Virus record (IMG/VR): IMGVR_UViG_3300033149_003492
Coordinates: 1 to 43,893 of that record
Source: a virus
Lineage: Duplodnaviria; Caudoviricetes
DNA: 43,893 bases
Direction: 5' to 3' (one strand)
Shown piece by piece: positions 17,390-38,808 of the stretch. The position numbers and the translations under genes are program-made. Under the pieces are notes generated by a model, which saw nothing but the letters and a program-made list of their open reading frames with translations, was not told the origin of the DNA and did no database searches. How positions within the stretch are numbered: the stretch's first letter is position 1; each line of letters begins with the position of its first letter.

Positions 17390-17452
17390 ACGGCGGGCAG
17401 GCCGCAAGCCTGTTTGACCGATTACATACCCATACCCCGTAGGGGTATATCC

Positions 17453-17481
17453 ACTATAGCAGGTTTCTTGCGTCTTGTCAA
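17453..17481 (-). promoter_or_regulatory. sigma70-type promoter facing the late operon
   Basis: TTGACA-17 nt-TATAGT with extended -10 TG. The palindrome ATACCCC-GTA-GGGGTAT (17432-17448) sits at the predicted start site. Confidence 0.75.
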
Positions 17482-21545: not shown

Positions 21546-22190
21546 TCACGGCTCCTGTTGGGGGGCAACCATGCCCGCTCGTTCCGGGACATAGTAGCCA
21601 CGGCGGGGCATGGTGAGCAGGTAGCGTGGGTGGGTAGGGTCAGGCTCTATGGTCCTACGGATATTCCAGACGTGAGCCCGCACCAGGGCTGAGGTGCCGA
21701 GGCCCAGGGTATAGCCCCAGACCTCTTTGAGGATAGTGCTGGACAGGAGGGGGTTAGGGCTTTCCAGCATGAGGTGGCGGAGGAGGCAGGTTTGGACTGG
21801 TGTTAGGTGGTACTGGCCCTCGGCGGTGGTGACGGTTCCGGTAGCTGGGTGGAGGGTGAGGAGTCCGACGGTGAGGGGGTCTTTACCGACGAGGCGTTGT
21901 TGGGCGTCGGCATCGAGTAGGGAGCCGACTTTGAGGACTTTGTAGGCTTCTTCGGAGTTGCGGACAACAGCAGCCTGGCCGCGCCAAGTGTCGTGCCAGG
22001 CGTGTTGAGCTGGGGTCAGCCTGCCGCCATCGGACTTGACCTCCAAGAGGTAGTTCATTCCCCGGAAGCCACAGAGGAGATCAGGGCACCCGTGGCCGAC
22101 GGGATGGAGAAGAGTAACTGAGACACCGGCTGCTCGGAGGTCGCGCACAATTTCCGCCTGATTTTCATCGACACGAGAAGCATAGCGCAT
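21546..22190 (-). CDS. VRR-NUC-type PD-(D/E)XK nuclease fused to an OmpR/PhoB winged-helix DNA-binding domain
   Basis: N-terminal G.PDLL...LLEVK..GRLTPAQ. C-terminal HLTP...LL..L...ILKEVWGY..LVRAHVWNIRRTIEPDP..PRYLLT..RGY. Confidence 0.85.
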   Translation of the reverse strand: MRYASRVDENQAEIVRDLRAAGVSVTLLHPVGHGCPDLLCGFRGMNYLLEVKSDGGRLTPAQHAWHDTWRGQAAVVRNSEEAYKVLKVGSLLDADAQQRLVGKDPLTVGLLTLHPATGTVTTAEGQYHLTPVQTCLLRHLMLESPNPLLSSTILKEVWGYTLGLGTSALVRAHVWNIRRTIEPDPTHPRYLLTMPRRGYYVPERAGMVAPQQEP

Positions 22191-22256
22191 AGGGCACCTC
22201 CGTAACGTGAAGTAAATTAACGTTTACGCATTTTTTCTTACCGCGTCTAGTTGCGC

Positions 22257-22617
<361 letters not shown>

Positions 22618-22686
22618 CACACACAGAGTAGCGCGACACGCCCCCTGTATAAGAGAGAAAGAAGACGCATTATGTCAACACAACCG

Positions 22687-24081: not shown

Positions 24082-24156
24082 TTACCTATCCTGTCCATGA
24101 TGATGAGGAGCTCAAGTATACCACAGGAGTAAGCCTAGTTCTAGTTGGCCTACCCC

Positions 24157-24426
24157 CTACTCCTCGGGGCTCGTCTCATGCGCCGGTACTAGCTCCCAAG
24201 AGACGACCTTCTCTTTAGGAACCACTATCTCACCCTCGATTATAATGGCCGCACCGCCGCTGGTACGAAACCAGTAGTTGGGATCACGAGACGGGACTTT
24301 GGAGTGAAACCAACATCCTTGATAGCCCCTTCCTGGAGGCTGAGAGAGCCGCGTGATGAGAGAGGGCTTATCCAAGCCCTCCACGTTCACGTCTCCGTCC
24401 TCGGTGATACTGATAACGAAAAACAT
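24157..24426 (-). CDS. Hypothetical protein
   Basis: Start MFFVISITEDGD after a GGAG SD. Confidence 0.6.
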   Translation of the reverse strand: MFFVISITEDGDVNVEGLDKPSLITRLSQPPGRGYQGCWFHSKVPSRDPNYWFRTSGGAAIIIEGEIVVPKEKVVSWELVPAHETSPEE

Positions 24427-24431
24427 CGTCG

Positions 24432-24581
24432 CTACTCCAATCCCAACGCTGCTAGAAATACACCCACGAACCCCAGGGTGAATAGGGCAGCCGCGACGCA
24501 AAGCACCAGGAATAGCTGAGCCAGGACGAGGCCAATGCCCAGCCGAAAGCCGTCGCCTACCGTCAATTGTTTCTTCTCCAT
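24432..24581 (-). CDS. Small membrane protein (49 aa)
   Basis: Below the ORF-track cut-off. SD AAGGAG, reads MEKKQLTVGDGFRLGIGLVLAQLFLV.. Confidence 0.55.
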   Translation of the reverse strand: MEKKQLTVGDGFRLGIGLVLAQLFLVLCVAAALFTLGFVGVFLAALGLE

Positions 24582-24596
24582 CTCACTCTCCTTCTT

Positions 24597-25037
24597 CTAA
24601 GAGCTTGAACAGATAGTCGATCCATATACCATGTTCGCCACAGGGGGGAACAGAAAGAAGATACCGTATTTGATGAGCAACGCTCGAAACTTGGCGTAGC
24701 TAGTGCCTGCCATAATTGAGAGGAAGGTTTTGGGCGGCGACAGTTCTGTATCCATAAATCGTAGCCAAGGAACGGCTCCGTTATTTATATCCTTTACTGA
24801 CCACGGGCTGTTGGGGTAGTTTTCATCAGCGGGGGTTCTTATACATGTGGTAAAAGGGTTGACAAATATTGCCACCTGAAATAGCTCATAGCTTCGGCCC
24901 CCACGTGGGGGATAGGGGTCTCCTGCATTGTGTTCATAGGGTGCATCATTCCAGTCGTCGCCCCATTGGTTGGCAAAATCCGTAGTGAACCAAACTATAG
25001 GCAATTTCACATAGCACAGTTTCGCTTTTTCGTTCAT
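24597..25037 (-). CDS. Conserved phage hypothetical protein
   Basis: QWGDDWNDAPYEHNAG.P motif and SD AAGGAG. Confidence 0.75.
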   Translation of the reverse strand: MNEKAKLCYVKLPIVWFTTDFANQWGDDWNDAPYEHNAGDPYPPRGGRSYELFQVAIFVNPFTTCIRTPADENYPNSPWSVKDINNGAVPWLRFMDTELSPPKTFLSIMAGTSYAKFRALLIKYGIFFLFPPVANMVYGSTICSSS

Positions 25038-25235
25038 GTCCTTGCTCCTTAAGCTGGCGATTCCTCAATCCTGCCCCGCGCATCCCCACAAGGTTTGACT
25101 AGACCAAGCCTTATGGGTGCACCGCCCCCAACACCTTGACCAGCAGCGTCCTCCCCGCATCCCACCCCCAGTAGTGGGCCATGCCGAACAGGAACCCGCT
25201 GGCGACGATGAACACGAACCAGCCCACAGCCTCAG

Positions 25236-25529
25236 TTAGGTCGCGTCGCATATCTCCTCCTGAGATACCTCTACTATGAGGGGCCGCCCCTCCTCGGCCA
25301 GTGTATAGTCTTGCGCTGTCAACGGCTTACCCTCAGTTGCAATTGGCTCTATTAGGCCCTGCCGCAAGAGAGAATGAAAGCTCTGGTAGGCTTTGGGGGG
25401 CAAGTGTGTCGTTTGTTTTCCAGGAAAGAAGAGGATGCTTGTACGTCCTCTTCGCAGCGGACTGCCAACTTGGGCCATGAGAGCCAATAGCTCGCGCTCT
25501 TCCCCGGTCAACCGCCTCTCCTCAGTCAT
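25236..25529 (-). CDS. Hypothetical protein (wHTH-like)
   Basis: SLLRQGLIE..YTL.EEG pattern. Confidence 0.55.
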   Translation of the reverse strand: MTEERRLTGEERELLALMAQVGSPLRRGRTSILFFPGKQTTHLPPKAYQSFHSLLRQGLIEPIATEGKPLTAQDYTLAEEGRPLIVEVSQEEICDAT

Positions 25530-25613
25530 TCCTCAGCTCTTTGATAATGCCGGGATAAACACCCCTGTGTCTGCCAGACGGCCTCGGCCAAGCTGCGTTT
25601 CACGACCCCTCCC

Positions 25614-26003
25614 TCAAAAAAAAGTCCCTTTCAATTCTTCTATGCCCAGCAAGTCTTCCACGGGTTCAGGAGGAGTTAATGGTAGCAACGACTTGTCTGG
25701 ACAGGAGGCACATATCTTCGTAAGTTCCTCCAGGCTTTTTCCACGCCCCCCAAAAAGGGCCATGAGCCACTCTGTTGCGGCGGAACCATGGGTTTCATTG
25801 ACATGTAGTATCGCGGCTAGAAGAACAGCGTTTTTAGCATCTCGCTCCTCAATCAACATCCCGAAGACAGAGTATCTATCTGTCTTAGCATTGGCAGCCC
25901 ACTTCCCATAAAGCTCCCCGAAGGATGTCCATTCGTCTTTCTTGGGCCGGCAACTTTGTAGAGCGTCAATTGTGACCAGCATAACGTTATCGAGTTTACG
26001 CAT
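25614..26003 (-). CDS. Hypothetical protein
   Basis: SD GAGGGAG before MRKLDN. Confidence 0.6.
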   Translation of the reverse strand: MRKLDNVMLVTIDALQSCRPKKDEWTSFGELYGKWAANAKTDRYSVFGMLIEERDAKNAVLLAAILHVNETHGSAATEWLMALFGGRGKSLEELTKICASCPDKSLLPLTPPEPVEDLLGIEELKGTFF

Positions 26004-26274
26004 GGCTATTCTCCCTCTGTTGTGTCCTCCGTGTGTTCTTCTCATACCACTTGCAATCGGCCACGCAGCCCCACTCCCAATCACTAGCCAGGCCACTGTA
26101 TTCACCAACTATGAGACCTAGTTTGGCGCACTCATACATACTTGAGCCATCGGCATATGCTCTTGGCCGGAGGTGAACGCAGTCTGTCCTCGGAGACTGG
26201 CTGTTACCAGCGACAACATCGACTACCGCCTTCATTTTTTCCTCGAACTCGCTTCGCTCCATTCGCCCACTCAC
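25996..26274 (-). CDS. Cys-rich hypothetical protein
   Basis: Four Cys residues and operon packing. Confidence 0.5.
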   Translation of the reverse strand: MSGRMERSEFEEKMKAVVDVVAGNSQSPRTDCVHLRPRAYADGSSMYECAKLGLIVGEYSGLASDWEWGCVADCKWYEKNTRRTQQRENSHA

Positions 26275-26287
26275 TCTTCATCTCCTC

Positions 26288-26581
26288 TCATTCTCTCGCT
26301 ATACGTATCTCTTCCACGCACCACCCACAAAGCTCCTCTGTGCCCGGTGGTGCTTCGTCGAGTATCACCTGACAGCGCAGGCAGAGCCGTCGTCCTCGAT
26401 GCTCGAAACGCTTGTACTTCCGGCCCCTCACTTTGACGCCCATTCCCTTTAGAATGCTGCGAACCTGGCCGGGCCGCAAGCCCAAAACCCTACCTATGGC
26501 GATACACCCGAAGCCGTCGAGGTAGAAACGACGCGCCTTCTGCGCCGTCGTCTCGTTGGTTCTCATGCTTGGCTGGCGCAC
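26288..26581 (-). CDS. HTH + zinc-finger protein
   Basis: IGRVLGL..GQVRSIL helix-turn-helix followed by CLRC..CGWC. Confidence 0.65.
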   Translation of the reverse strand: MRQPSMRTNETTAQKARRFYLDGFGCIAIGRVLGLRPGQVRSILKGMGVKVRGRKYKRFEHRGRRLCLRCQVILDEAPPGTEELCGWCVEEIRIARE

Positions 26582-26820
26582 CTGCTTTCGTAGATTAGCT
26601 CACCATTATCCCAGAGAGACAGAACGCATTCTTGCATCAATAGGTCTAGCGGATATGGCTCTGCGTCCAGATAGACACGTGAGATGTCCTCTGCTGTGCC
26701 ACCCAAACAGGCTTTGAGCCTACCGTCTAGGCTGACGAAGGTAAAGGAATAGTCATAATAGTTTTTGAACTGCATCTTTCGGTCGCCGTATCTTTGCATC
26801 ACTTGTTCATAGTTGAGCAT
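26563..26820 (-). CDS. Hypothetical protein
   Basis: SD AAGGAG, YYDYSFTF motif. Confidence 0.6.
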   Translation of the reverse strand: MLNYEQVMQRYGDRKMQFKNYYDYSFTFVSLDGRLKACLGGTAEDISRVYLDAEPYPLDLLMQECVLSLWDNGELIYESRCASQA

Positions 26821-26891
26821 CGTCTCGACTCCTTTCTTCGTCCAGCCACTACGCCTTCCGTTTCCGAGTGGACTGAAGTTTCTGCATCGTT

Positions 26892-27458
26892 TTAGTGTGG
26901 GTCATTTTCCGGCATCCTTTCCAATCCATATACCCAGACCCACGGATTGTCCATCCACCGCGTTCCCCGCTTCTTATGTAACTCGTCCCACCAGTCGGCG
27001 TAGTGCTCTACCCACTCTCCAGGATACCGTAGGACACTTTCCTCTCCGTCGAGGTCAACTAGAACCCCCTCAGCCACCGCGTCCACGTCTCTCATTTCGT
27101 GAAGGCGTTCCGAACGGAATGAAGTGATGCGTGCATAGTAGCGACAAGCCCAACGGGGCATGAAAATAGCGGGGAGCACGTCTCGTTGCCAATCCCAGAC
27201 ACGTTGCGAAGCGAGCAGGCCGTCAGCTTGATAGACGATCTCACGATCATAGAACATCCCGTCATCGCCTGGAATAGGGTTGGCTTGCAGAGCTTCCCTG
27301 AACCACACTATCGTGCCAATGGAGTATGCAGGTCCTATAACCCCAGTCGCATTCGGAGCTAGTCCGAGTGGCCTCACTAAGCGTCGTGTCTCATGCTTCA
27401 TCCCAGCCTGCCAAGCCCGAATGGAACGCGAGCCCATGGCCATAGGCTTGGCGTTCAT
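26892..27458 (-). CDS. ASCH/PUA-like phage protein
   Basis: GMKHETRR, WFRE, PAIFMPRWACR, ERL, AVAEG, W.DNPWVWVY motifs. Confidence 0.85.
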   Translation of the reverse strand: MNAKPMAMGSRSIRAWQAGMKHETRRLVRPLGLAPNATGVIGPAYSIGTIVWFREALQANPIPGDDGMFYDREIVYQADGLLASQRVWDWQRDVLPAIFMPRWACRYYARITSFRSERLHEMRDVDAVAEGVLVDLDGEESVLRYPGEWVEHYADWWDELHKKRGTRWMDNPWVWVYGLERMPENDPH

Positions 27459-27730
27459 AGCTCCCATGGCTCCTCCTGTGGGGTTTGAGCGGCACATTCG
27501 GCACACAGCTCTTCTTCGTTCAGCGGCTCCCGTTGCCAGAGGTAACAGCTTGTACAGCAGTACCACCCCCGTTTAGCCATCCCCGCAAGAAAGTCGCTTT
27601 TTCTTATGGTGATCGAGTCTTCCCAGCCTAGTAGGAACTCGTCAGGCCAAAAGTCTGTGCATCCCTGAGCGATGATCTTGGCCCATTCGTCGAAAAGCCG
27701 CTCCTGACAATCTTTGCAAAGCTGAATCAT
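27455..27730 (-). CDS. Cys-rich hypothetical protein
   Basis: CKDC, CTSC and CAEC motifs. Stop is coupled to the next start. Confidence 0.5.
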   Translation of the reverse strand: MIQLCKDCQERLFDEWAKIIAQGCTDFWPDEFLLGWEDSITIRKSDFLAGMAKRGWYCCTSCYLWQREPLNEEELCAECAAQTPQEEPWEL

Positions 27731-27767
27731 AATCTGTTCCTTTCTAGTACCGGCAGGAATTTGAGGT

Positions 27768-28124
27768 CTAGCTGGCCTGTGTGCGTTTATCTTCTCGTTC
27801 GGCTGGAGTCTCTCCTTCTCTATCCAGCCATTCCTCAATAGCCTGGCAAATCGACATCGCGGTATGTTGACTTTCCCCGAGGATTTTCTCCATAGCTACG
27901 AGCGCCTGGCCCACATTGGTGTGTGGCGACCAGATCGAACCGCGAGCAGGAGGCCCACCAACAGTTTCTTTGTGGACATCCCCTCCGTGGTGAGTCAGGA
28001 GCATCAGGAATGGGTCGTTGGGGTCTACCCAGCACCTATCCACGAACTCCCAGCCCATGATCTCTCGTGCAATCCTATCGTCCAGTTCTCTCCACTCAGC
28101 TTCTGTGCGCTCAGTCATCGGCAA
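27768..28124 (-). CDS. Phage ABA-sandwich-like protein
   Basis: ELDDRIAREIMGW..WSPHTNVGQA..MEK..ICQA pattern. Confidence 0.65.
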   Translation of the reverse strand: MPMTERTEAEWRELDDRIAREIMGWEFVDRCWVDPNDPFLMLLTHHGGDVHKETVGGPPARGSIWSPHTNVGQALVAMEKILGESQHTAMSICQAIEEWLDREGETPAEREDKRTQAS

Positions 28125-28482
28125 TCTCCTGGCTTAGCACTTGGGCTATTGCCTGTAGAAGCTGCCTCTTTGTGCCTGTGAGTTTCTCTTCCATCATCTC
28201 TTTGTACTTATCCCAAGGCGGCGTATTAACGAGTCCACCGATCTGGGGCCAAGCATTCCTAACAAACTGGCTTGCTGCGCAACGAGCTGCCTCATAGAAA
28301 AGCTCTCCGATGTAGCCACCCAATTCCTGCTCGACGTATTTGAGGGTGTCAACAATCTCAGGCGCGGAAGGCTCTGGCACCATGCCCTGCCAATCTCTGA
28401 CAAGTTGGCGGATCTGCTCCTTCCTTTCCCTGATTTCTTGTTCCAATGCTCTAATCGTCTGGAGATTATCCCTGGTCTCCAC
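28111..28482 (-). CDS. Hypothetical coiled-coil protein
   Basis: Operon packing and SD. Confidence 0.6.
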   Translation of the reverse strand: METRDNLQTIRALEQEIRERKEQIRQLVRDWQGMVPEPSAPEIVDTLKYVEQELGGYIGELFYEAARCAASQFVRNAWPQIGGLVNTPPWDKYKEMMEEKLTGTKRQLLQAIAQVLSQEIADD

Positions 28483-29209
28483 TAGTTCCCTCCTCCTTCT
28501 GTATCGCCCGCAGAGCCTCGGCGGGGTCGTCGGTATAGTCGAAAAGCTGTGTCCAAATCTCAGTAGTCCATCCTCTAATGCTTCGATAGCGCCCGTCGCT
28601 CCTCACCAAACGCGAGTCTTTCCGCATCCCTCGAACTAACTCCCCTATCTCGGCGTCGGCCTTCAGATCAGCGTTTATTGCTTCCAACTCCACCACCCGC
28701 TGCCGAAGTTGCTCGTTCTCGGCTCTGAGCTCCCGCAGGGCTATATCCTGAATCCCTACCTTGTCAGATTCCATGGGGCGACTCTCCTGTATCGTCCGCA
28801 GAGCCTCGGCGGGATTGCCGATTGTGGTTGCGAGGGCTGTCCACTCCTCGGTAGTTCCTCCTATAATCCCCCGATAACACATCTGATCACCCCTCAACTG
28901 TGTGTAATCTGCCCTTCCCCGCACCAATCGCCCTATCTCAGCGTCAGGTTCTAGTTCAGCGATGCGTTCCTTGAGCCTGGGGATCTCGTCATCGGCTTGG
29001 CCAACGGTTGTGTCGGGGTCTTTGGGCGTCGTCTCACGGCTGAACATCAGGAGAAGGTTTATTCTCGTCTCGTGGCGCTCGACTAGCTGGCTCAGTTCTA
29101 GGAGCCACTCATACAACGCTTCCGGGAAAATAAACGTCTCCTCCCCTCGAACGGTCGCCGTGCGCACCAACACCTTTTCTCCTAGCCGTTCGCTCAGTTT
29201 CTTGGCCAT
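28466..29209 (-). CDS. Hypothetical protein with an internal tandem duplication
   Basis: DAEIG.LVRG...W...PAEALR.IQ occurs twice. Confidence 0.65.
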   Translation of the reverse strand: MAKKLSERLGEKVLVRTATVRGEETFIFPEALYEWLLELSQLVERHETRINLLLMFSRETTPKDPDTTVGQADDEIPRLKERIAELEPDAEIGRLVRGRADYTQLRGDQMCYRGIIGGTTEEWTALATTIGNPAEALRTIQESRPMESDKVGIQDIALRELRAENEQLRQRVVELEAINADLKADAEIGELVRGMRKDSRLVRSDGRYRSIRGWTTEIWTQLFDYTDDPAEALRAIQKEEGTSGDQG

Positions 29210-30060
29210 TCTTTGACCTCTCTTCCTTCTCTGTCCAGCAGCGGCCTGCCTGGCCTCAGCCCTGAGTCTTGCTTTAGAAAGCACGGCACTCCGGTCTCGC
29301 GGCATTGGTCGAGCACATCCCAGGCCCATTCTTTCCTGAATGGTCGCCGGTTGGGGCCCGACTCAGCCCCGACTATGACATAGTCCAGACATGGTCGATA
29401 ACCCTCACAGAACGAACACGGCAGGCAATGGAACTTATGTGGTCGGGGAACCCTGCAAGTTGGATCACAGGTGTCTAGGTATTGTACGATGTCTATACGT
29501 GCTAACGCTGGTTCGTAGCTCAGGAATCTTATAGCCGCAGGTATCCCTAAGAGCAGCGGTATTCGCTCCTCAGCAGTGTTCTGATTCTCCGCCGAGATAC
29601 CCAACCACAGGTTGGGAAAAGGCCACGGGCATTTCTCCCCGGACCTGGGATAGACGCTCCTCCTCCATTCCTCTACCCCCCATAGCTCAGCCATCCTTTT
29701 GGGTCGCTTGGTCAATACCTGCCAATCTATGTCTTGTCTCTCGGCTACGATTCCCAGGAACTGGGCAATAAGTGCAGTCGGCACATCCTCGTGAAACAGG
29801 TCTCCCATATCCACGGCGAAGGCCATGGGCTTGCTGTTCGGCCCTCGCCTGAACGGTGGCTTAGGTTGCCAGCGTCGTAGCCGCTCCAGCTTCTCTGGGT
29901 AGATTTGCACCGTAGAGAAGTCTATGCCCCATCTCTGACCCCAGCGGAACCCATAGCAGTTACGGCACCCAGGACTTACCTTCGTGCAACCCAGCACGAA
30001 ATTGAGGTCTCCGCCTGAAAAGTCCGTCCAGCTTATCTTGCTACGCCTTGGCGTCGTCAT
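29194..30060 (-). CDS. DUF5131 / phage Gp37Gp68 family protein
   Basis: SKISWTD, GCTKVSPGCRNCY, MGDLFH, QVLTKRP, RFLSYEP, VIVGAESG, FLKQ motifs. Confidence 0.93.
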   Translation of the reverse strand: MTTPRRSKISWTDFSGGDLNFVLGCTKVSPGCRNCYGFRWGQRWGIDFSTVQIYPEKLERLRRWQPKPPFRRGPNSKPMAFAVDMGDLFHEDVPTALIAQFLGIVAERQDIDWQVLTKRPKRMAELWGVEEWRRSVYPRSGEKCPWPFPNLWLGISAENQNTAEERIPLLLGIPAAIRFLSYEPALARIDIVQYLDTCDPTCRVPRPHKFHCLPCSFCEGYRPCLDYVIVGAESGPNRRPFRKEWAWDVLDQCRETGVPCFLKQDSGLRPGRPLLDREGREVKEWPRN

Positions 30061-30307
30061 CTTTCGCCCTCCAGTCGGCACAGTACCACTCTGTCCAGTC
30101 TCGGTCTACCCGAGGGGGAGGAGCAAAACACGAACCATCGCTCGCCCCGTACCGACATGTTTCGCAACGTTGCTGCCATATTCGCTGCAACTCCCTCAGC
30201 GCCGACCGATAATTCTCCAAGACTTCAGGCATGTTCGTTTCGGCCAGATGCTTCTCACACCACTCCAGTTGCTCCTCAATCCACTCGTCGCTCAGCGGCT
30301 CAGTCAT
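30041..30307 (-). CDS. Small Cys-motif protein (paralog of 30300..30581)
   Basis: PLSDEWIEEQL..RCETCRY..C..YCADW. Confidence 0.6.
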   Translation of the reverse strand: MTEPLSDEWIEEQLEWCEKHLAETNMPEVLENYRSALRELQRIWQQRCETCRYGASDGSCFAPPPRVDRDWTEWYCADWRAKDDDAKA

Positions 30308-30581
30308 TGGCGGTGTCCTTTCGCTGCCAGCTTGCACAACCCCACTCGGGGCCAAAGTCATCACAGGCCCCGTTGCCTTTTTCACAGAGATACCAGTCTT
30401 CATCCTCAAGATAGCTGAAGAACCTGCACGTCTTGCATCGCCGCTGGCGTAGCTCCAGGAGCTCATGTAGAGCAAGAATCTCGATAGCTTCTCGGTTAAC
30501 GATACCAGCCTTGGCTGACGCAAGCAGATAGTTCAGTTGATCCTTGATCTCTCGGTCCGTCAGCGGCGCGTAGTTAGTCAT
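30300..30581 (-). CDS. Small Cys-motif protein (paralog of 30041..30307)
   Basis: PLTDREIKDQL..RCKTCRF..C..GCASW. Confidence 0.6.
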   Translation of the reverse strand: MTNYAPLTDREIKDQLNYLLASAKAGIVNREAIEILALHELLELRQRRCKTCRFFSYLEDEDWYLCEKGNGACDDFGPEWGCASWQRKDTAND

Positions 30582-30603
30582 CGGCACTTTCCTCTGCCAC
30601 ACC

Positions 30604-30996
30604 TCAGAAGGGAATCTCCTCTTGCGTCTCCGGCTCTGGAGCAGTGGCACGCTCTTGGGCACGCTCTTCCGAGCTCCCCAGGAAAACAACTTTGTATGCC
30701 CGCACATCGAGGCTCGCACGCCACTCGCCATTGTTGGTCTGATAGACCCGTGGCTCCTGTATCGTTCCCTCCACAAAAACCTGGCGACCCTTGGAGAGAT
30801 ACTGGTTGCAGGTCTCCGCCAGCCTGCGCCAAGCCGACACGCGGAACCAGACCGTCTTTTTGTTGGTGGAGCCGTCCTTGCTCGTCCACTTCTGGTCTGT
30901 GGCTACCGAGAAATTGGTAACGGCAGTTCCGTCTTGGGTGTATCGCATCACTGGGTCTGCACCCAACCTACCCACAAGAATGATTTTCTGGTACAC
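30604..30996 (-). CDS. ssb: Single-stranded DNA-binding protein
   Basis: GTG start after AGGAGG. KIILVGRLGADP.MRYT..G.AVTNFSVAT, LSKGRQVFVEG and C-terminal EEIPF. Confidence 0.96.
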   Translation of the reverse strand: MYQKIILVGRLGADPVMRYTQDGTAVTNFSVATDQKWTSKDGSTNKKTVWFRVSAWRRLAETCNQYLSKGRQVFVEGTIQEPRVYQTNNGEWRASLDVRAYKVVFLGSSEERAQERATAPEPETQEEIPF

Positions 30997-31025
30997 TGCT
31001 CCTCCTACTTTTCGGGAGATGTCTA

Positions 31026-32156
31026 TTAGCTCTCGGCCTGGGCCGCTTTTTGAGCTACGTATTTGTCCAACTGCTCTCTGCGCATCTTGGGACCCAACTG
31101 TGTTCCTCGTAGTCCAGCCAGAGTTTCTATTCCCCAAGCCTCCAATATCTCCAAGAGACTGAGGGTCAGAGTGTTGAGGCCGTAGTCCAGCAAGTCCAGG
31201 ATAGCGGATACACCCTCCCAACTCATAGTGGTGTCCTTCATGGACTCAACTCCGAACTCTCGATGCGCGTCTGCTCTCTCCAGCCCCAGATTCTTCCATC
31301 TTGCCCAAAACCGCGCTCGTTTCGAGGAATCGCTTGTCCAGTGTTCCGGGCTATCGTTCATGCGCTCTTCTGGTATCTTAGACTCAGCATCCTGGGGTTC
31401 CTCTTGATCCTGGGGCTCCTCTTCAGTCGCTGTGTCTGTTTCTGTGGTGGGGGTGGGTAGTGCGCGTCCCTCACTACTAGAGGGAAGCGAAAGCATTTCA
31501 CTCCGGGATTTGTCTAGTTGGGCAGCAACCCACGCTGCGGCAGGTTCCAGTTTCACCAACCACTTTATGCGACGTACCCTTTTCCCCCCTGTCGAGGGGG
31601 TAGAGATATTTTCTGCTACTCGACGTAGGCAGAAGCCAATGCCACGCAAATCCTCTTGGCCCCTGGCCTCCACTGTTGCCATGAGAGCAGCCTGTATCGC
31701 CAGGATGTCGTGTAGGCTGTGTGTCTCCATAGTAACATAGCCTACATATCCCGCACGGATAAGTGGCGGCAGAATTAGACTAAGCCGTCCCACCTCTTTA
31801 CATCCCCCAGGGCATGGCTTTGGCTCCTGGCTGTAGCTACCATCCTCTCGGAGCCAGATGGTGCAGGTCTCACCATCACAACGATGCAGCAAACCTCCGG
31901 CCTGCCAGTGCTCCTTCCAGCAAGAGAAGTTGTCCTCAATCCGTGCATAGGGCAGGTAAACGTCGATCTCCTGCGGTTCATCCCCATAGACTGCCTGAAA
32001 AGCATTCACTACATCCGGCCTATCGCTGGTGAAGCGAAAATATTCGAGGTCCTTGCCAGGTCTTCGGCCACTCTCTGGGCGAGGGCCACCCTTGCGCAGC
32101 TTGCCGATGCGCGGGAACGTCGGTAGAACCGTATCGGTCAGTCCTCTAATGGCCAT
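31026..32156 (-). CDS. Gp3-like / recombination directionality factor-like protein
   Basis: FPRIGKLRKG..KDLEYFRFTS, HRCDGE, C..GCK.VGRLSL.LP motifs, located in the recombination cluster. Confidence 0.65.
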   Translation of the reverse strand: MAIRGLTDTVLPTFPRIGKLRKGGPRPESGRRPGKDLEYFRFTSDRPDVVNAFQAVYGDEPQEIDVYLPYARIEDNFSCWKEHWQAGGLLHRCDGETCTIWLREDGSYSQEPKPCPGGCKEVGRLSLILPPLIRAGYVGYVTMETHSLHDILAIQAALMATVEARGQEDLRGIGFCLRRVAENISTPSTGGKRVRRIKWLVKLEPAAAWVAAQLDKSRSEMLSLPSSSEGRALPTPTTETDTATEEEPQDQEEPQDAESKIPEERMNDSPEHWTSDSSKRARFWARWKNLGLERADAHREFGVESMKDTTMSWEGVSAILDLLDYGLNTLTLSLLEILEAWGIETLAGLRGTQLGPKMRREQLDKYVAQKAAQAES

Positions 32157-32412
32157 TGGCACGTGCCTCCTCTTGTAGTTGAATTGGGAGCCCAAGAAAG
32201 ACCTCGTTGACTTTGGCGCGTTGCTTTGCTACCAAAGGCAGGGCTTGGGCCTTGACATTCTCCTTAGCCATGCACCATAACTGGCTCATAGCCTCATTCA
32301 GGTCGTCCTCCTCGTCCACCTCGGCCCAAATCGAAATCTCGATGTGTGCGCTTTGGAACTCACCTAAGTTGAACTTGCGCCCATAGGTAACGCTGACATT
32401 CGTTGGCTTCAC
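32146..32412 (-). CDS. Conserved phage hypothetical protein
   Basis: YGRKFNLGEFQSA motif. Confidence 0.7.
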   Translation of the reverse strand: MKPTNVSVTYGRKFNLGEFQSAHIEISIWAEVDEEDDLNEAMSQLWCMAKENVKAQALPLVAKQRAKVNEVFLGLPIQLQEEARANGH

Positions 32413-32428
32413 CGCCTTCCTGCCTTTC

Positions 32429-32692
32429 CTAAGCGTACTCCGGCATCCCGACCCAGCCTAGACTCCCACCTACCCTTCGCTCCTCGAAAGAGAAGGCTAG
32501 GCGCTGCTGACCCCAGGATATGCCCGTAATCCTGCTGTCGGGCACGGCCTTCTCTATGATGCCCCCTAGCCACCAGATGCTGTCGAATGAGTAGCGGCCA
32601 GGGAACTCCACTTCAAACGACCGTTCGTTCTGGGTCAGAGTGTACTCCACCCCCTCAGCCTCCAACGCGCGATCTAGTTCATCCAGGTTCAT
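32429..32692 (-). CDS. Hypothetical protein
   Basis: SD AGGAGGG and operon packing. Confidence 0.6.
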   Translation of the reverse strand: MNLDELDRALEAEGVEYTLTQNERSFEVEFPGRYSFDSIWWLGGIIEKAVPDSRITGISWGQQRLAFSFEERRVGGSLGWVGMPEYA

Positions 32693-33575
32693 TGTTCTCC
32701 CTCCTCTCCTGATACCAGTTGCACCACTGATTCACCCCGCAGTAACCCCTCGGCTTCCCTGCGCATCGGACGCAGAGGCCGGGGCGCTCTACAATTGTGG
32801 CCCTCATACGGGCCTTCGGGTTTAGGTGACATTGAATATAAAGCTCGGCCTCCTCTGGGCTGGCCAATAGTCGTCTGGCCCTCTTTCGGTCTTTCAGCAT
32901 CACTGCCCAGACTGTCGGTTTTTCCCAACGCTCCTCTGGTGTGCAGACGGGGAGTTCGTCATCGGGCCGTCTCTCGGCTCTCCGATGAAACCCAATCCTT
33001 TTTACCACATAATACCAGACACGTTCGGGAGACCAAACCGAGACCGGGATCATCAGGAACGGCCTGGGGGGATAGTCGCCTCCCTGCATAGCACGGCTTC
33101 CCTGCCAGTCACGCAGGATGGCCGCGATGTAAAGCTCATCAACGCGGAACCCGATCTCCCTGTACATCTGCGCATAGATGTTTACTTGTGCATCCCACTC
33201 CGGTGCCTCCCCCCGTGCTGCTGCCAATGCCTTCCAGACTGATGTGTTCTTGTAGTCTACTACTCTGTATTCCTCATACCAGTCGGGCGTGCCGTAGATA
33301 AGTGTGCCGTTGATCCGCCAGGTCAGGCCCTCCTCTTGTAGCGCATTGGCAACATTGCTGTGCTCAAGCGTGGCGTGAATGGCCTGTCCTTGAAGCAGCC
33401 ATAGCCGTTCGCTGGCATCCTCAACCATCTCGTCATCATGTCGTTTGCGCAACATTCGGATGCGTGGCGGTAGCACCAACTCCGTAGCTGAAAAGTCCCC
33501 TCGTGTTGCGTGGCCATCGTAGGTCACTGCGTTTACAATGGCTTGGGGAAGGCCATAGCGATTCGTGATCCTCAC
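32679..33575 (-). CDS. Cas4-like PD-(D/E)XK exonuclease
   Basis: G.AIH..LE, GTPD, VVDYK, QVNIY motifs and C-terminal RC..YC.V..WC cysteines. Confidence 0.85.
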   Translation of the reverse strand: MRITNRYGLPQAIVNAVTYDGHATRGDFSATELVLPPRIRMLRKRHDDEMVEDASERLWLLQGQAIHATLEHSNVANALQEEGLTWRINGTLIYGTPDWYEEYRVVDYKNTSVWKALAAARGEAPEWDAQVNIYAQMYREIGFRVDELYIAAILRDWQGSRAMQGGDYPPRPFLMIPVSVWSPERVWYYVVKRIGFHRRAERRPDDELPVCTPEERWEKPTVWAVMLKDRKRARRLLASPEEAELYIQCHLNPKARMRATIVERPGLCVRCAGKPRGYCGVNQWCNWYQERRENNEPG

Positions 33576-33793
33576 GACCCTATCTCCTGTGGGCAGCTAT
33601 TCCCAAACACATAGAATCGCCGGGCTTCGTGGTCGATGCGAAAGCTGGTGACAGGTTCCTCGTAAGCTACACCGACATCGTTCTGGTAAGCGATGTAGAT
33701 AGGGTAGTCATCGCTTCGCCAATTACTTTCGTTGAAGACCTCTCTAAGAGTCTTTGCCGGTTCGGGCTCAACGTACATTACTGCGACGCTCAT
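33572..33793 (-). CDS. Hypothetical protein
   Basis: SD, coupled to the next gene. Confidence 0.55.
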   Translation of the reverse strand: MSVAVMYVEPEPAKTLREVFNESNWRSDDYPIYIAYQNDVGVAYEEPVTSFRIDHEARRFYVFGNSCPQEIGS

Positions 33794-33805
33794 CCCTCTC
33801 TCCTT

Positions 33806-34165
33806 TCAGTCTAGTAGTTTTAGTAAAACCTTCATAGTAGCGAACTCAGGGGCCAGAAGATAAGGCAGTCCAATCAAGAGACTAGTCAGAGAGGTAATAA
33901 ACCCCATCGGGGCTAATAGAACGCCAATAGCCTGTTTGTCTTCATCAGGAAAGTGAGAATACCCTTGTCTGCTTCCTAGTCCAGAGCCTTCTCGGTAGAA
34001 CCGGACGCCCACTAACCCAACTACAAACAGAACGATACCCACGCCTGTGTATAGCCAGCCGGTCAGGTAGCTGTATCTTAGGGCTGCGGCCCATACACGA
34101 TTTGCTGCGGGCGTCAACAAAGCACCGATTTGCTCCAAGACCTCAATAATCTCTTCAGGATTCAT
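33806..34165 (-). CDS. Membrane protein
   Basis: Two transmembrane segments, ending LLAPEFA. Confidence 0.7.
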   Translation of the reverse strand: MNPEEIIEVLEQIGALLTPAANRVWAAALRYSYLTGWLYTGVGIVLFVVGLVGVRFYREGSGLGSRQGYSHFPDEDKQAIGVLLAPMGFITSLTSLLIGLPYLLAPEFATMKVLLKLLD

Positions 34166-34291
34166 TCTTCTTCCCCCTCTTTCTGATTCCCCTTTTCCCT
34201 CAGCCGACCCACCACTCCAACCACCAGATCAATGCCTGAATTGCCAGGAGCACCAGCATACATAGAAGGCCCTGCCAAATGGCGGGTTTAT

Positions 34292-35047
34292 TCATGGTTG
34301 CTCCACTCCCAGAGCGCCCGTCAAATTGGCCCCAGTCAGATTGGCCCCGGTCACATTGGCCCGGGTCAGGTTAGCATTGGTCAGGTCGGCCCTAGTCAGG
34401 TCGGCCCCTCTCAGATCGGCATCAAGCAAGTAGCTCCAGCACAACACCGCATTGGTCAGGTTAGCCCCGGTCAGGTTGGCCCAGCGTAGGTTGGCCCAGC
34501 CTAGATCGGCCCCGATCAAGTTGGCCTCCCTCAGATTGGCCCGGGCCAGGTTGGCATTGGTCAGGTCGGCCCCAGTCAGGTCAGCCCAGCGTAGGTCGGC
34601 CTCGACTAGGGCGGCCAAATATAGGCTGGCCCCGCGTAAGTTGGCCCCGTGTAGGTCGCCTTTAGAGAGATTGATCCAGCCCAGGTCTGAATATCGTCCC
34701 CAATTGAAGGGCGGACGCAAAGCCCGACACAGAACCCTCCGGTCTATCCTCCGTAACCGTAATGCAGGAACAGCAACCTTCTCTTCATCCTCTCCAGTTA
34801 CCTCCCAGTATTCGGCAAACCAGGGATACCCGCCGGGGTGAAAGACAAGCGACAGATATTTCATCAGGTGGAAGCGCCCTGGGCCACAAGGCTTGCCGTC
34901 CGGTGGGGCTGGCTTGGGGTGACGCATAACCGGCCCCCACTTTACGCCGGGCCCTGGTACGGCATACTCAGTCTGCTTACCCTTAAACCAGGTACAATAC
35001 GAGGCGCCAAGAATCTTGAACCCTCTGTAGCTGGCACGGCTGCTCAT
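34292..35047 (-). CDS. Pentapeptide repeat protein
   Basis: More than 20 A(D/N)Lxx repeats in the C-terminal half. Confidence 0.93.
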
Positions 35048-35238
35048 GCTTGCGCCTCCATCAGCTCCACAAGCGCAGCCTCATTCAGGTAGACGCGGCC
35101 TCGTTCCTCGTCCACTTCGATGTCGTCCAGGCTACTGCGATAGATTTGTCCATTTTGGACCGTCACCAACCAGATTTCGTCATCCTCGATGGCCTCTAGC
35201 TCGTGAAGCATCTCCAAAAGTTCTCCAACTTTCACCTC
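35044..35238 (-). CDS. Small acidic hypothetical protein
   Basis: (V)KVGELLEML start after AGGAGGGAG. The exact start is uncertain. Confidence 0.55.
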   Translation of the reverse strand, partial: EVKVGELLEMLHELEAIEDDEIWLVTVQNGQIYRSSLDDIEVDEERGRVYLNEAALVELMEAQA

Positions 35239-35441
35239 TCCTCCCTCCTCTCTCCGGGCCAAGCGTAGTCCACTGCCCAACCTAGCTGCTCCTGGCTGGC
35301 CTCACTACGCCGCACGACGCCGCACCGACGGCCAGAGCCTCTCTTCTTGTTGTGGTAGACGATGTGACACTCGCCAGTCTCATTCGCCAGGCGGCGAGCC
35401 TGCCGAATCGCGGCCCTCAGACTCAGAAACTGTTCCCCCAT
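35232..35441 (-). CDS. Hypothetical basic protein, first gene of the replication operon
   Basis: SD GGGGAGGG before ATG 35441. Confidence 0.6.
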   Translation of the reverse strand: MGEQFLSLRAAIRQARRLANETGECHIVYHNKKRGSGRRCGVVRRSEASQEQLGWAVDYAWPGERREER

Positions 35442-35652
35442 TGTCGCCCTCCCCGTTTGCTAGTCCCGGTGACTTTCCTGTCAGTGCGCTCTCCGGGCAT
35501 AGCAAGGCGCCCCTTATCAAGTTTCGCCGTCATGTCACTGACTAGCTGGGGACGTGAGTCCGCTTGATAAGGGGCGCTTTGCCCAGAATATCCTATTCTG
35601 TTAGACGGCGAATAAAAGCAAATCGCCCCCAAAGCTGGCCAGTGACACTCTC

Positions 35653-35681
35653 ACTATAGCAGCTTTCCCCCAGGATGTCAA
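35653..35681 (-). promoter_or_regulatory. sigma70-type promoter of the replication operon
   Basis: TTGACA-17 nt-TATAGT with extended -10. It shares TGCTATAGTG with the promoter at 17453-17481. Confidence 0.8.
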
Positions 35682-35710
35682 TGGCTTTCTGAACGAATCT
35701 GAAAAAGCCG

Positions 35711-35737
35711 TTAGCACTCTCTGGTTGAGAGTGCTAA
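35711..35737. promoter_or_regulatory. CIRCE element (HrcA operator)
   Basis: TTAGCACTC-TCTGGTTGA-GAGTGCTAA matches the consensus TTAGCACTC-N9-GAGTGCTAA at 18/18 positions, and it is intergenic. Confidence 0.85.
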
Positions 35738-35746
35738 CTCATGGAC

Positions 35747-35793
35747 AGAAAAGCAACCGCCCTCCAGCGGGCCGGACGCTAGAGAGCGGTCAC
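35747..35793 (-). terminator. Intrinsic terminator at the end of the late operon/ncRNA
   Basis: GUGACCGCUCUCUAGCG-7 nt loop-CGCUGGAGGGCGGUUGC followed by UUUUCU. Confidence 0.7.
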
Positions 35794-35814
35794 TCAGAGG
35801 AGAGACAGATGATA

Positions 35815-36050
35815 GCTGAGGGAGCTAGGCCAGGCACTAACTCCCTCTTAGCAGGAACCTTGCGGTTCCGCGCTCCGCACCCGAAGGAGCGAAGGAGGCT
35901 TACGGGGGTCAGTCTCCTGGGCCGACCCCCAGCGTGAGCCAATTCCCAGGAAACTGACTCACTGTGCAGTGGCTCTGCTTAGTCCTGTGTTCACAAAGCT
36001 ACGCCCAGCGGCAAAACCCTCAGTGGGTCCCGGGCCTGGGCACTGCACCT
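35815..36050 (-). ncRNA. Candidate structured non-coding RNA of unknown class
   Basis: Consecutive stems with G-U pairs on the minus strand, a GCAA tetraloop, a cUUCGg motif, and two hairpins with complementary loops UCCUGGG/CCCAGGA. Confidence 0.65.
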
Positions 36051-36084
36051 GAATTGGGTGCGATTGATCCCAGATTGGGTACAG

Positions 36085-36345
36085 TCACCCACCATTCAAT
36101 GCGCGGCCTGCGTCGTAGACCTCCATACTGCCCAGTGCTAGGAAAAGCACTGTCCAGATACGCTCAAACCAGGCTGCAAAAGCAGGATTCAGTGCCGCTG
36201 CCTCGTTCGCCGACAAGAGCACGGCAGCCACCAGGAACGCAGCGACCTGGGCCCACCTACTAGGCAATCCGACTAGTTTCAGCGCATCTACAATACGTTT
36301 CACAGCTAGAGCACCGGCAACGCCAAAGATCACAAACTCCTCCAT
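36085..36345 (-). CDS. Putative holin
   Basis: 86 aa with 2-3 transmembrane segments, last gene of the late operon. Confidence 0.7.
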   Translation of the reverse strand: MEEFVIFGVAGALAVKRIVDALKLVGLPSRWAQVAAFLVAAVLLSANEAAALNPAFAAWFERIWTVLFLALGSMEVYDAGRALNGG

Positions 36346-36612
36346 TTATCCCTCCTTCTCGAAGAGAAACTTGTAGGCCGGGACGGTGCGAACTATCGCA
36401 TCCCGGCACATCTGTGGAACGCGCTTGCAGTCTAGGACACCCGCATTGAAAGCACGGTTTAGTATATTCGACATATGGGTTTGTGACAAACCAGCCCACT
36501 CACTCCATTGCCGCGTGGTGTAGTATCCCTCTGGTATACCATCTCCTTCTTTCCCAGAGACCAGTGCCAACAAGTCGTCCAGTGTGAACTCGCTTGGCAT
36601 CTCAATCCGCAT
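36346..36612 (-). CDS. Small HTH-like protein
   Basis: PEGYYTTRQWSEWAGLSQTH pattern. Confidence 0.6.
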   Translation of the reverse strand: MRIEMPSEFTLDDLLALVSGKEGDGIPEGYYTTRQWSEWAGLSQTHMSNILNRAFNAGVLDCKRVPQMCRDAIVRTVPAYKFLFEKEG

Positions 36613-37432
36613 GAACCACCTCCTCTATGTGGGGTAATGGAATGGTGTATAACCGTGGCTTCACTAATATGTCCTTAGTATCCCACTCGATGACTATATA
36701 GCCAATGTGGGGGAGCGTGACGATGCTACTCTTGAAAGCATAGGCGGTGCGCAGTTGCCAGGCCGGAATGGTATAAGCCTGCAAGTCAGGGGCAACAAAG
36801 ACCCCAGCACAGCGATGCCGGTGCGCGCGCACAAAGAGCTTTGTTCTCAGCCCCTCGGCCCCATACCACCGAGCTTCCTCAGACCGCTTCATCAGCATGT
36901 CCCGTAGCAGGGTAGTCACCTCGTACCACGAAACTCGTGTAGCCCCTAAGTGGTGCGATAGGTTCACCACCGGCTCTGAGCCTCCCGGCAACCGCAGGTT
37001 TATCTCCCACCAGCCCCGTTGCTTGGTGGCCGGGTCTTTCTCGGCCTCTAGCATCTCGGACAGCAGACCAAGAGCCTCGCTTGCTTTCCCCTCATGCCAG
37101 GGTGTGCCCTTGACCATGTAGAATCGTTTGGTACATTCGCGCCAGGGCCTTAATAGCTGATAAGCTGCTAGAGCCTGAATGTCGGTGCGATTGGTGACTA
37201 GCTGTCCATCTCGGATGCTGGTGCCCTGCACCGCGTCCCCCAGGAGCGTTATCACATCCGGTTTCAGTCGTCGCACTCGACGGCTTGCGTCCTTCCAGCA
37301 ATCGAGCAGGAACCGTTGGGCCTTGCTCAGGTTATAGTAACCCCCGTCCGGCAAAGGGACTTTGGGAGGCCAAAGGGCCACCGTACTGCCGACATGTAGG
37401 TCGGCGATAGCTACTATTCTGAATGGACGCAT
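36602..37432 (-). CDS. Calcineurin-like metallophosphoesterase
   Basis: IADLHVG, LGDAVQG, KGT.WH, HH and RAHRH motifs. Confidence 0.85.
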   Translation of the reverse strand: MRPFRIVAIADLHVGSTVALWPPKVPLPDGGYYNLSKAQRFLLDCWKDASRRVRRLKPDVITLLGDAVQGTSIRDGQLVTNRTDIQALAAYQLLRPWRECTKRFYMVKGTPWHEGKASEALGLLSEMLEAEKDPATKQRGWWEINLRLPGGSEPVVNLSHHLGATRVSWYEVTTLLRDMLMKRSEEARWYGAEGLRTKLFVRAHRHRCAGVFVAPDLQAYTIPAWQLRTAYAFKSSIVTLPHIGYIVIEWDTKDILVKPRLYTIPLPHIEEVVHAD

Positions 37433-37659
37433 CAGTTCCGCATCCCCAACCAGCCTGCGATGCTGGCGAGAGCAGCCGAGAGTACGGCTTGCAGAGCCGT
37501 GGAGCGGCTTACGCGGTTCTCCACGACTTCTATTCGTGTTTCTAGCTTGCCCACACGTTTGCCGAACTCTTTGATGTCGGCCTTGATCTCAGCCACATCA
37601 TCCTGGGTACGGTGCGTTCTCTCGTCAATGCGCACAAGTAGTTCGTTGTTGTCTAGCAT
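37432..37659 (-). CDS. Coiled-coil membrane protein (XhlA/holin-accessory-like)
   Basis: LLVRIDERT coiled coil followed by a C-terminal transmembrane segment. Confidence 0.65.
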   Translation of the reverse strand: MLDNNELLVRIDERTHRTQDDVAEIKADIKEFGKRVGKLETRIEVVENRVSRSTALQAVLSAALASIAGWLGMRN

Positions 37660-37692
37660 GTGTGCTCTCCTGTGGCTTTCTCATAAATCCCC

Positions 37693-38808
37693 CTATGTCA
37701 CTACCCACTCATCAATCATCTTCCATGTCTCTGTTTCCCCCTTGAGCACGCGGTATTGTCCATACTCCGGGTTGTAGGCCAAGCAGAAGATATACCCACC
37801 CAGTTCCCACTCGGCCCTGTGAACGTATCCCTTCTTGTCGCACCATTTCATCGTTGCTGGTAGAATCGCCAACTTCATCTTGGCAACTTCTCTCTCATCT
37901 GCTTCTGGGTCGGCCTCCTCGTTCTGCCCCTGTAACGCGGCCACTCTAGTATAGTCGGCCAAAGTCCGGCCCACGTAGTGGTCAACGATGTCGAAACCCA
38001 TCTCCTGCCAGTCCGAGGCGGCGCCGGTCTGAAAGATGGCAGCGAACTTCACGTCGTCATCTGGGGCAATGCGCATATCGTAGTTGACCAGCCAATCAAA
38101 ATAGGTATTGGGGTGTGGTGCTTTCCGAAACCCTGCATGACCACCGTGCCAGACGGCTCTATCCCAGCCCACCTCCGTGATAATGATTGGCGGCAGCCGC
38201 AAATTGTGACTCAATATCTCCTGGCGTGTCTTGCGGTATCGAAACACTCGCCATGGGTGCCAGGCGAACGGTACTCCGTCGTTGCTGTCGGCCCCCTCTG
38301 GCCAGGCATATTCATGCAGCCCTAGATAATCGGTTTGGGTTAGCACCGGCGAGTACAGCGGCAAGTGTTCCAATTTGGGCCAGCCGACGCTAAAGTTCCC
38401 TGTGATAACTCGGTTGCCGTGCAAGCGAAAGAGACGTATCAACTCGGACTCGAACTCAGAGAGCCGTCGCATGTCATCGTCCGACCAGGGGATGAACTCA
38501 TTGACACTCTCAACGACGTTGGTTAGTCTACGCCATCTATCGTAAGCCCCCACTGTATGATCGAAGAACTTGTGTGCTCCTGCTGTGCCCTGCAATACCC
38601 ACTCACGTTGCTGGTTATCATCTACCCATTGACGTGGCCAGACGAATGGTCTTTTCACCCCCCTGGCGTCGTACTCCGGCAGCACCTCCCGTTCGAGCCA
38701 TTCTGGGCTAACGTCGGTCATGCACTTGACGGCCGGATACAGAGCCAGCCGCAGATGATGGGCCGCTGCACCGCTCTCTCTCTGCACATGGGCCGCCAGC
38801 TTGGTCAT
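37693..38808 (-). CDS. Putative endolysin: clan GH-A-like TIM-barrel glycoside hydrolase
   Basis: ESVNE (acid/base), GNFSVGWP, LGLHEY and IIITEVGWD (nucleophile) motifs, in the lysis position. Confidence 0.7.
   Translation of the reverse strand: MTKLAAHVQRESGAAAHHLRLALYPAVKCMTDVSPEWLEREVLPEYDARGVKRPFVWPRQWVDDNQQREWVLQGTAGAHKFFDHTVGAYDRWRRLTNVVESVNEFIPWSDDDMRRLSEFESELIRLFRLHGNRVITGNFSVGWPKLEHLPLYSPVLTQTDYLGLHEYAWPEGADSNDGVPFAWHPWRVFRYRKTRQEILSHNLRLPPIIITEVGWDRAVWHGGHAGFRKAPHPNTYFDWLVNYDMRIAPDDDVKFAAIFQTGAASDWQEMGFDIVDHYVGRTLADYTRVAALQGQNEEADPEADEREVAKMKLAILPATMKWCDKKGYVHRAEWELGGYIFCLAYNPEYGQYRVLKGETETWKMIDEWVVT

Follow-up and report, generated by a model that had tools for sequence, protein, structure and literature searches.

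The window analysed here is the whole 43,893-nucleotide stretch of one IMG/VR record of a Caudoviricetes phage (IMGVR_UViG_3300033149_003492). By searching its proteins against the PHROG (71 ORFs) and Pfam (74 ORFs) families, we found a siphovirus-type gene set with TerL, portal, MuF, head-tail adaptor, tail tube, tape measure, Dit-like protein, DnaB-like helicase, SSB and exonuclease. The late operon ends on the minus strand (36085–38808) with a putative endolysin (37693–38808), a metallophosphoesterase (36602–37432) and a putative holin (36085–36345). The replication/recombination operon (21546–35441, minus strand) holds small ORFs, a pentapeptide protein, a Gp3-like protein, SSB, DUF5131, the DnaB-like helicase, the exonuclease (32679–33575) and a VRR-NUC/wHTH gene. 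The product of the latter (21546–22190, minus strand) is a VRR-NUC nuclease fused to an OmpR-type winged-helix domain, which are two separate genes in another phage record, G059. The head genes include an 846-aa protein that resembles fusions of a prohead protease with an HK97-type major capsid protein (9804–12344, minus strand) and is a candidate chaperonin client; a stand-alone 79-aa S4/TyrRS C-terminal RNA-binding domain is also encoded amid them (12329–12568, minus strand). The ends of the record carry a 112-bp terminal direct repeat and a 1776-aa tail frame spans the junction; despite this repeat, the CheckV completeness estimate is only 59%.

Six-frame family searches of this phage (G000) gave no match to HrcA, Hsp20, GroES or GroEL. 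The first-pass annotation had seen neither an integrase nor a repressor, and the same six-frame searches, on a record that CheckV rates as 59% complete, agree with it for tyrosine integrases, serine recombinases and HTH_3 (Cro/CI-type) proteins, while HTH proteins of other kinds are present at 19485–19799 (HTH_17) and 21546–22190 (OmpR-type wHTH). In addition, the Pfam scan of 74 ORFs revealed no DnaK, DnaJ or Clp family, no partition family turned up among the proteins compared with PHROG and Pfam, and the window contains no tRNA.

Between the two operons lies a non-coding gap (35442–36084) that contains a match to CIRCE, the operator of the heat-shock repressor HrcA. On the minus strand the order is the holin-like gene, a chain of hairpins, a terminator, CIRCE, a 29-bp spacer, a promoter, a leader and the replication/recombination genes. 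The chain is a structured non-coding 3' region of about 340 nt that follows the holin and is rich in hairpins with G-U pairs (35745–36084, minus strand); its folding z-score is -5.1 on the minus strand versus -2.8 on the plus strand, and it is possibly an undescribed structured RNA. Within it, a 19-bp G-U-rich hairpin with a U-rich tail (35745–35795, minus strand) probably serves as intrinsic terminator for the late operon, which comprises the structural and lysis genes. The U-tract of this predicted terminator is short, and the operator begins 7–13 nt beyond it. Then comes a predicted sigma-70 promoter (TTGACA-17-TATAGT, extended TG; 35653–35681, minus strand) which would drive the replication/recombination operon. 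Read from 35681 to 35653, it is one of only two promoters in the genome that match at 11 of 12 positions. Its predicted +1 falls at 35646–35647 and the centre of CIRCE is therefore at about -78. The 29 bp that separate CIRCE from the -35 (35682–35710, minus strand) comprise a T-tract and a weak imperfect inverted repeat, and may form an UP-element region. CIRCE thus fits inside the gap of about 65 bp between the late terminator and the replication promoter. The placement described by the first-pass annotation, which was intergenic with a terminator upstream and a -35 about 30 bp away, was borne out by these measurements. The second near-consensus promoter (17453–17481, minus strand) has the same CTGCTATAGT -10 context and no CIRCE; it lies about 620 nt ahead of a putative TerS, with a C/A-rich low-complexity leader (16832–17452) in between.

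The leader of the replication/recombination operon (35442–35647, minus strand) is 205 nt long, stands ahead of the first gene and can form mutually exclusive long helices. At 115 nt from the predicted +1, it folds as a closed rod with its 5' end paired with 35547–35533, and at 146 nt it refolds round a 20-bp helix between 35582–35563 and 35521–35502. Several further alternative helices of 7–10 bp extend to the region of the ribosome-binding site. The middle segment pairs both upstream and downstream, which we take to be reminiscent of P4-type RNA immunity. Folding windows over the control region rank 1, 3 and 7 of 292. Rfam gave no gathering-level match in the window; two chance-level matches fell in 35200–36200, and the leader had no match.

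The element at 35711–35737 (no strand assigned; 12-bp arms, 35710–35738) reads TTAGCACTC-TCTGGTTGA-GAGTGCTAA, with TCTGGTTGA as the spacer between the arms. It matches the CIRCE consensus TTAGCACTC-N9-GAGTGCTAA, as given in the available parts of the sources (PMC1676014, PMC545781, PMC8762339; also PMC12038028), at 18 of 18 arm positions with 0 mismatches and a spacer of 9. It is the sole match at up to 3 mismatches in the whole window, and such a match occurred in none of 100 dinucleotide shuffles. An exact CIRCE is expected 4.6e-7 times per genome from base frequencies and 1.2e-7 times from a third-order Markov model. The exact CIRCE claimed by the first-pass annotation therefore stands. Eight other operator consensuses were scanned as well and gave nothing convincing in non-coding DNA.

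The same letters could also be read as RNA. The palindrome forms a perfect 12-bp stem (-20.4 kcal/mol, 6 of 12 pairs G-C) and passes an intrinsic-terminator consensus scan. The minus strand 3' of the stem, on which stem-GGC-UUUUU had been noted earlier, indeed reads GGCUUUUU. The element might then be a second intrinsic terminator, its stem spelling CIRCE by accident, with GGCUUUUU following the stem on the transcribed strand. However, the run of five U begins only after 3 nt beyond the stem, there is a better terminator immediately upstream, and the neighbouring RNA hairpins use G-U pairs whereas CIRCE is a perfect DNA palindrome. The odds that any given 9-bp arm spells the CIRCE arm are about 1.7e-6.

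We then compared the motif with altered versions of itself throughout IMG/VR. The exact N9 motif occurs in about 170 stretches, from which 120 loci, drawn from 47 of the 64 IMG/VR parts, were examined. The reversed motif was found nowhere in IMG/VR. With the same arms, spacers of 3–8 gave 10 loci, all N8, and spacers of 10–15 gave 8, all N10, so that neither the loops of 3–7 that are typical of terminators nor those of 11–15 occurred at any IMG/VR locus. Because about 170 N9 stretches stand against 0 for the reversed motif and 0 at N3–7 and N11–15, the element behaves as an operator and not as a generic hairpin. Two counts favour the terminator: the arms are extended on both sides, as they are here, in only 2 of 95 distinct contexts, and exact matches inside reading frames (4 clearly within long ORFs and 3 doubtful or overlapping ORF ends, of 120) prove that chance matches occur. 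Taken together with the chaperone-free CIRCEs of other phage lineages described below, these controls side with the first-pass annotation in preferring an HrcA operator to a second terminator. That 35711–35737 represents a true HrcA operator, maybe with a minor role in termination, is well supported by this comparison of motifs, and an accidental terminator is very improbable. As a side observation, the N10 variant of CIRCE is found at both ends of one 15.8-kb viral record (L158 and L162), next to a TGTTTCACGTGAAACA palindrome that is presumably parS-like.

Chaperone genes accompany many of the 120 loci. One lies within 700 bp of 59 of them (28 GroES, 21 Hsp20, 6 HtpG, 2 GroEL, 1 HrcA and 1 ClpB), and 16 further loci share flanking DNA with chaperone loci, which brings the chaperone-linked loci to 75. 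Many of these are located at prophage edges or belong to phage-borne Hsp20 genes. In seven loci (L001, L024, L053, L056, L063, L064 and L071) an exact CIRCE is found 23–29 bp before the start codon of a phage-type Hsp20, which is apparently tied into the host HrcA regulon. Eight 5–7-kb records (L005, L013, L021, L036, L048, L059, L062 and L095) have a microvirus-type replication gene abutting Hsp20 and CIRCE, a junction that is possibly an integration site. In one (pro)phage family (L039, L054, L070 and L097), tRNA genes are preceded at about 110 bp by a promoter whose -35 CIRCE overlaps, which is a canonical repressing position at a non-chaperone target.

The remaining loci include 34 intergenic orphans, which have a chaperone gene neither within 700 bp nor at a shared flank; this count leaves out 7 loci that lie in ORFs or overlap them and 4 situated at unresolved edges of contigs. 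In one orphan locus (L015), which has two sites, the first lies beneath a 194-codon ORF of doubtful reality. Long regions were compared for 28 of the 34 orphans. By their shared proteins these fall into 12 groups of up to 13 records, and no such link to our phage was found. Several records carry repeated sites whose spacers differ: G001 has four, spaced at 49 bp, G035 has three, and G002–G005 and G040 have two exact copies each. Many orphan sites are near TerL or in early/late hubs; in another record (G034, L137:6412–6438), CIRCE occupies a 56-bp gap, 19 bp ahead of a major tail protein gene. We searched 32 of the 34 orphan records along their whole length for Hsp20, GroES and GroEL. Hsp20 exceeded the cut-off in none of the 32, GroES-like genes were present in G007, G015 and G025, and GroEL only in G025, 30 kb from its CIRCE. 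G007 and G015, both incomplete records, thus have their own GroES-like gene and no GroEL match. Among the 7 orphan records that are at least 90% complete, none had GroEL or Hsp20 and 2 had a tyrosine integrase.

These loci bear on whether the site could be a neutral remnant, that is a piece of a host groES, dnaK or hsp20 promoter that was captured by recombination and is not yet decayed. The 75 of 120 chaperone-linked loci indicate that such DNA does enter phage records, and the site was absent from all eight distantly related records that we inspected (see below). Nevertheless, we found no chaperone gene or fragment in the genome, and all 18 arm positions are intact in an element confined to some 65 bp between terminator and promoter. 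Moreover, other lineages retain orphan sites although the flanks have diverged: in three related phage pairs, with TerL identities of 85% and 65% in two of them, the 18 arm bases and their orientation are kept while the adjacent 27-bp blocks match at 3–15 of 27 positions. Since the pairs were chosen for exact matches, they indicate shared retention and not a rate. We consider a remnant unlikely.

We next examined where CIRCE sits relative to called promoters. Among 52 distinct chaperone-linked contexts, 33 sites were centred between -45 and +30, over the called promoter or shortly behind it, 6 were distal and 13 had no promoter called, compared to 9, 11 and 10, respectively, among 30 distinct orphan contexts. 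Fisher tests gave p-values of 0.002–0.006, which overstate the contrast because related sequences were counted several times. The phage site, at about -78, falls outside the interval that holds 33 of the 39 chaperone-linked cases for which a promoter was called. At chaperone genes, the farthest upstream position that is plausible is -56, seen at three htpG loci. Outliers at phage Hsp20 loci, two at -165 and -173 and one at +61, have called promoters that are probably not theirs. The published operators, as described in the available parts of the sources, lie 3–4 nt downstream of +1 in L. plantarum (PMC1676014), 5–9 nt upstream of the -35 in Chlamydia, a position from which HrcA represses (PMC13750654), and over the core promoter in H. 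pylori (PMC6032397), and the phage site is outside all three. In terms of a class I heat-shock (HrcA) regulon, no chaperone or protease gene was found that the phage site could control, and the site is located neither at the core promoter nor at the +1.

Could HrcA nevertheless act on the replication promoter from this distance? Bound at -78, it might damp the promoter, e.g. by blocking contact of the alpha-CTD with the T-rich spacer, in which case replication would proceed when the host GroEL is overloaded and a host repressor would replace the CI switch. Repression from just upstream of the -35 in Chlamydia is a precedent (available part of PMC13750654), the three htpG sites at -56 are about two helical turns nearer than the phage site, and the host regulators LexA, Spo0A and CtrA run phage switches elsewhere, according to the accessible text of PMC9437464. 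However, the 29-bp gap exceeds that of every chaperone-linked context with a plausible promoter as well as the published positions seen in those sources. Also, no integrase, recombinase or partition family was found that could hold a silent state, CIRCE is missing at the other strong promoter (17481), and the tandem arrays that other phages carry far from promoters do not need promoter control. Damping is possible, but on the whole we judge it somewhat unlikely.

The comparison with other phages speaks to the same question. By single-protein and alignment scans with the metallophosphoesterase, the exonuclease and the endolysin, no close relatives were obtained, and the metallophosphoesterase and exonuclease scans yielded no loci or loci of differently built phages. 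Six records aligned with the endolysin (53–60% identity) and two phage records with the metallophosphoesterase (61%), all of which have only 1–4 of 70 proteins in common with our phage. A 2661-bp contig encodes a metallophosphoesterase (P0117) that is 96% identical to that of the phage. The first-pass annotation had proposed to look for CIRCE in related phages; at up to 3 mismatches, it was found in none of the 6 endolysin-sharing and neither of the 2 metallophosphoesterase-sharing records, all of them distant. No cultured phage resembles the control region. The TerL matches do not exceed 32% identity, and a 30-base BLAST is too blunt to detect CIRCEs in cultured phages.

In four endolysin-sharing records, we mapped the junction between lysis and replication genes. 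Two of them (G059 and G062) have there a TTGACA promoter together with genes for an HTH_3 repressor and a Cro-like protein; our phage has no HTH_3 match. Both observations are in favour of damping. A third (G058) has a similar promoter and other palindromes. The CI/Cro-like pairs lie in complete phage records, at L186:12364–13201 (G059) and L189:11860–12714 (G062), and despite these pairs neither record had a tyrosine integrase or serine recombinase match. Because CI/Cro-like pairs occupy the slot in G059 and G062, and other palindromes in G058, the lysis/replication slot is a variable control module, filled here by CIRCE and the structured leader. In the light of these data, the replacement of a CI switch proposed by the first-pass annotation gains from the CI/Cro-like pairs in the same slot and loses from an operator about 78 bp upstream of the start.

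The terminator next to the operator suggests yet another role, in which HrcA would act as a roadblock or insulator behind the late operon and halt late read-through into the replication promoter and the structured leader. An operator 7–13 nt past a predicted late terminator with a short U-tract fits such a role. However, the HrcA literature that we examined, as far as its text was available, contained no report of an HrcA roadblock, and most orphan sites elsewhere do not follow a terminator but occupy divergent or early/late hubs. A roadblock is thus quite improbable.

The host is probably a member of the Chloroflexota (Anaerolineae), as judged from protein homologs. First, among the best 120 SSB homologs, the 7 that are taxon-named are all Chloroflexi or Anaerolineae. 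Second, 2 of 112 exonuclease matches are taxon-named, the close one (63%) from Anaerolineae and the other (40%) from Thiococcus. Third, endolysin look-alike clusters are most frequent in Chloroflexota, although across ten endolysin clusters the sole protein with a name belongs to an archaeal MAG. HrcA has been reported in Chloroflexota (PMC6180586, PMC11994032), yet it was lost in streamlined SAR202 (PMC11994032), both according to the available parts of these papers. A literature search for hrcA and Anaerolineae found no paper, and the accessible part of PMC7448276 is not decisive.

We tentatively favour, with somewhat less than even confidence, that the exact CIRCE is a replication-amplified decoy which would draw the host HrcA off the groESL and dnaK promoters. 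HrcA is a GroE-dependent repressor of groESL and of the operon that encodes it (PMC1676014, PMC6032397, PMC3842655, in the parts available). Taking the host as a Chloroflexota bacterium with HrcA, and assuming that HrcA binds the phage site, a single incoming genome would leave chaperone control unchanged. After replication, with tens to hundreds of genomes present, the few sites of the host would face competition for HrcA, and more GroEL and DnaK would be made. This rise in chaperonin would coincide with the making of the HK97-type capsid protein. Lying in the untranscribed gap behind the terminator, the site would stay clear of passing RNA polymerase. In the available text of PMC3012670, the HK97-fold capsid protein gp23 of T4 needs the host GroEL, a need that the capsid protein of our phage may share.

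With assumed values (20–500 repressors and 6 host sites), a toy titration gave 1.0–1.1-fold derepression for a single genome, rising to 1.2- to 12-fold when 100 were present, with little effect if HrcA is abundant. From this range, the decoy would work only if HrcA is scarce. For a decoy speak the lack of any chaperone gene match in the phage, the centre at about -78 and the recurrence of chaperone-free CIRCEs, some of them in 2–4 copies. Against it, there is a single site per genome, which lies 29 bp from a strong promoter in the CI/Cro slot of G059 and G062 while a decoy needs neither, and 9 of 30 orphan contexts do overlap a promoter. Autoregulation of hrcA would buffer the titration, and in L. 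plantarum the deletion of hrcA raised groEL only 2-fold at 28 °C (PMC3842655, available part). Thus, of the decoy already put forward in the first-pass annotation, the fit to the operator geometry and to the multi-copy arrays, better than for any other model, was retained, and the single copy and the absence from all 8 distant relatives weigh on the other side.

Decoy and promoter damping are compatible. In a combined switch, HrcA would damp the replication promoter at single copy; heat, protein overload or the first replication rounds would release it, and the new genomes would titrate HrcA, locking replication on and raising chaperonins. The same device would then have been invented independently wherever orphan CIRCEs occur, in 12 or more other groups of phages. 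We regard this scheme as doubtful.

Compared to known systems, the phage site is like the CIRCE/HrcA sites of hosts in its exact consensus, its intergenic location and its proximity to a sigma-70-type promoter, and unlike them in residing on a phage genome, with no chaperone gene and its centre at about -78. Operators for host regulators are likewise found near the control regions of other phages, for LexA (GIL01, CTX and others), Spo0A (phi29), CtrA (Caulobacter phages) and PhoB (cyanophage S-PM2d), as described in the accessible parts of PMC9437464, PMC10976474 and PMC11511902. Those sites regulate phage promoters, whereas the role favoured here is titration of the host regulator; HrcA has no occurrence in the available text of PMC9437464. 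In comparison to the LexA/GIL01 and Spo0A/phi29 switches, our CIRCE is in the CI/Cro slot and yet distal, and neither an integrase nor a serine recombinase was found in a record that may be incomplete (CheckV 59%). The co-chaperonin gp31 of T4 and other chaperonin strategies serve the same goal as a decoy would, GroEL capacity for an HK97-fold capsid (available part of PMC3012670); T4 encodes a protein, whereas the search for chaperone genes found none here, and a DNA site of 27 bp would take that part. The chlamydial HagF derepresses the HrcA regulon by lowering HrcA-CIRCE binding (PMC13750654, in the part available), but HagF is a host protein and the phage element would compete as DNA.

Our search of full-text literature, mostly without subscription papers, found no phage-borne CIRCE. 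Two candidates were rejected: the prophage rows of PMC3842655, suspected to include an HrcA-controlled gene, fall under CtsR, and a paper on the Campylobacter carrier state concerns the host hrcA and no phage CIRCE (PMC4534711), both as seen in the available portions.

The dependence of phages on the host GroEL has long been known. We found no description, in the searchable papers, of how phages of HrcA-using hosts gain more GroEL. On the strength of its sequence, the element is a real host operator on a phage, with a role that is predicted. As a host marker, CIRCE suggests that the host should use HrcA/CIRCE, in a phylum with few studied viruses. If the switch were true, it would be a lysis decision linked to proteotoxic stress, and HrcA would be added to the few host regulators by which phage switches are run. 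If the decoy were true, 27 bp of DNA whose dose scales with genome copy number would constitute a protein-free takeover with built-in timing.
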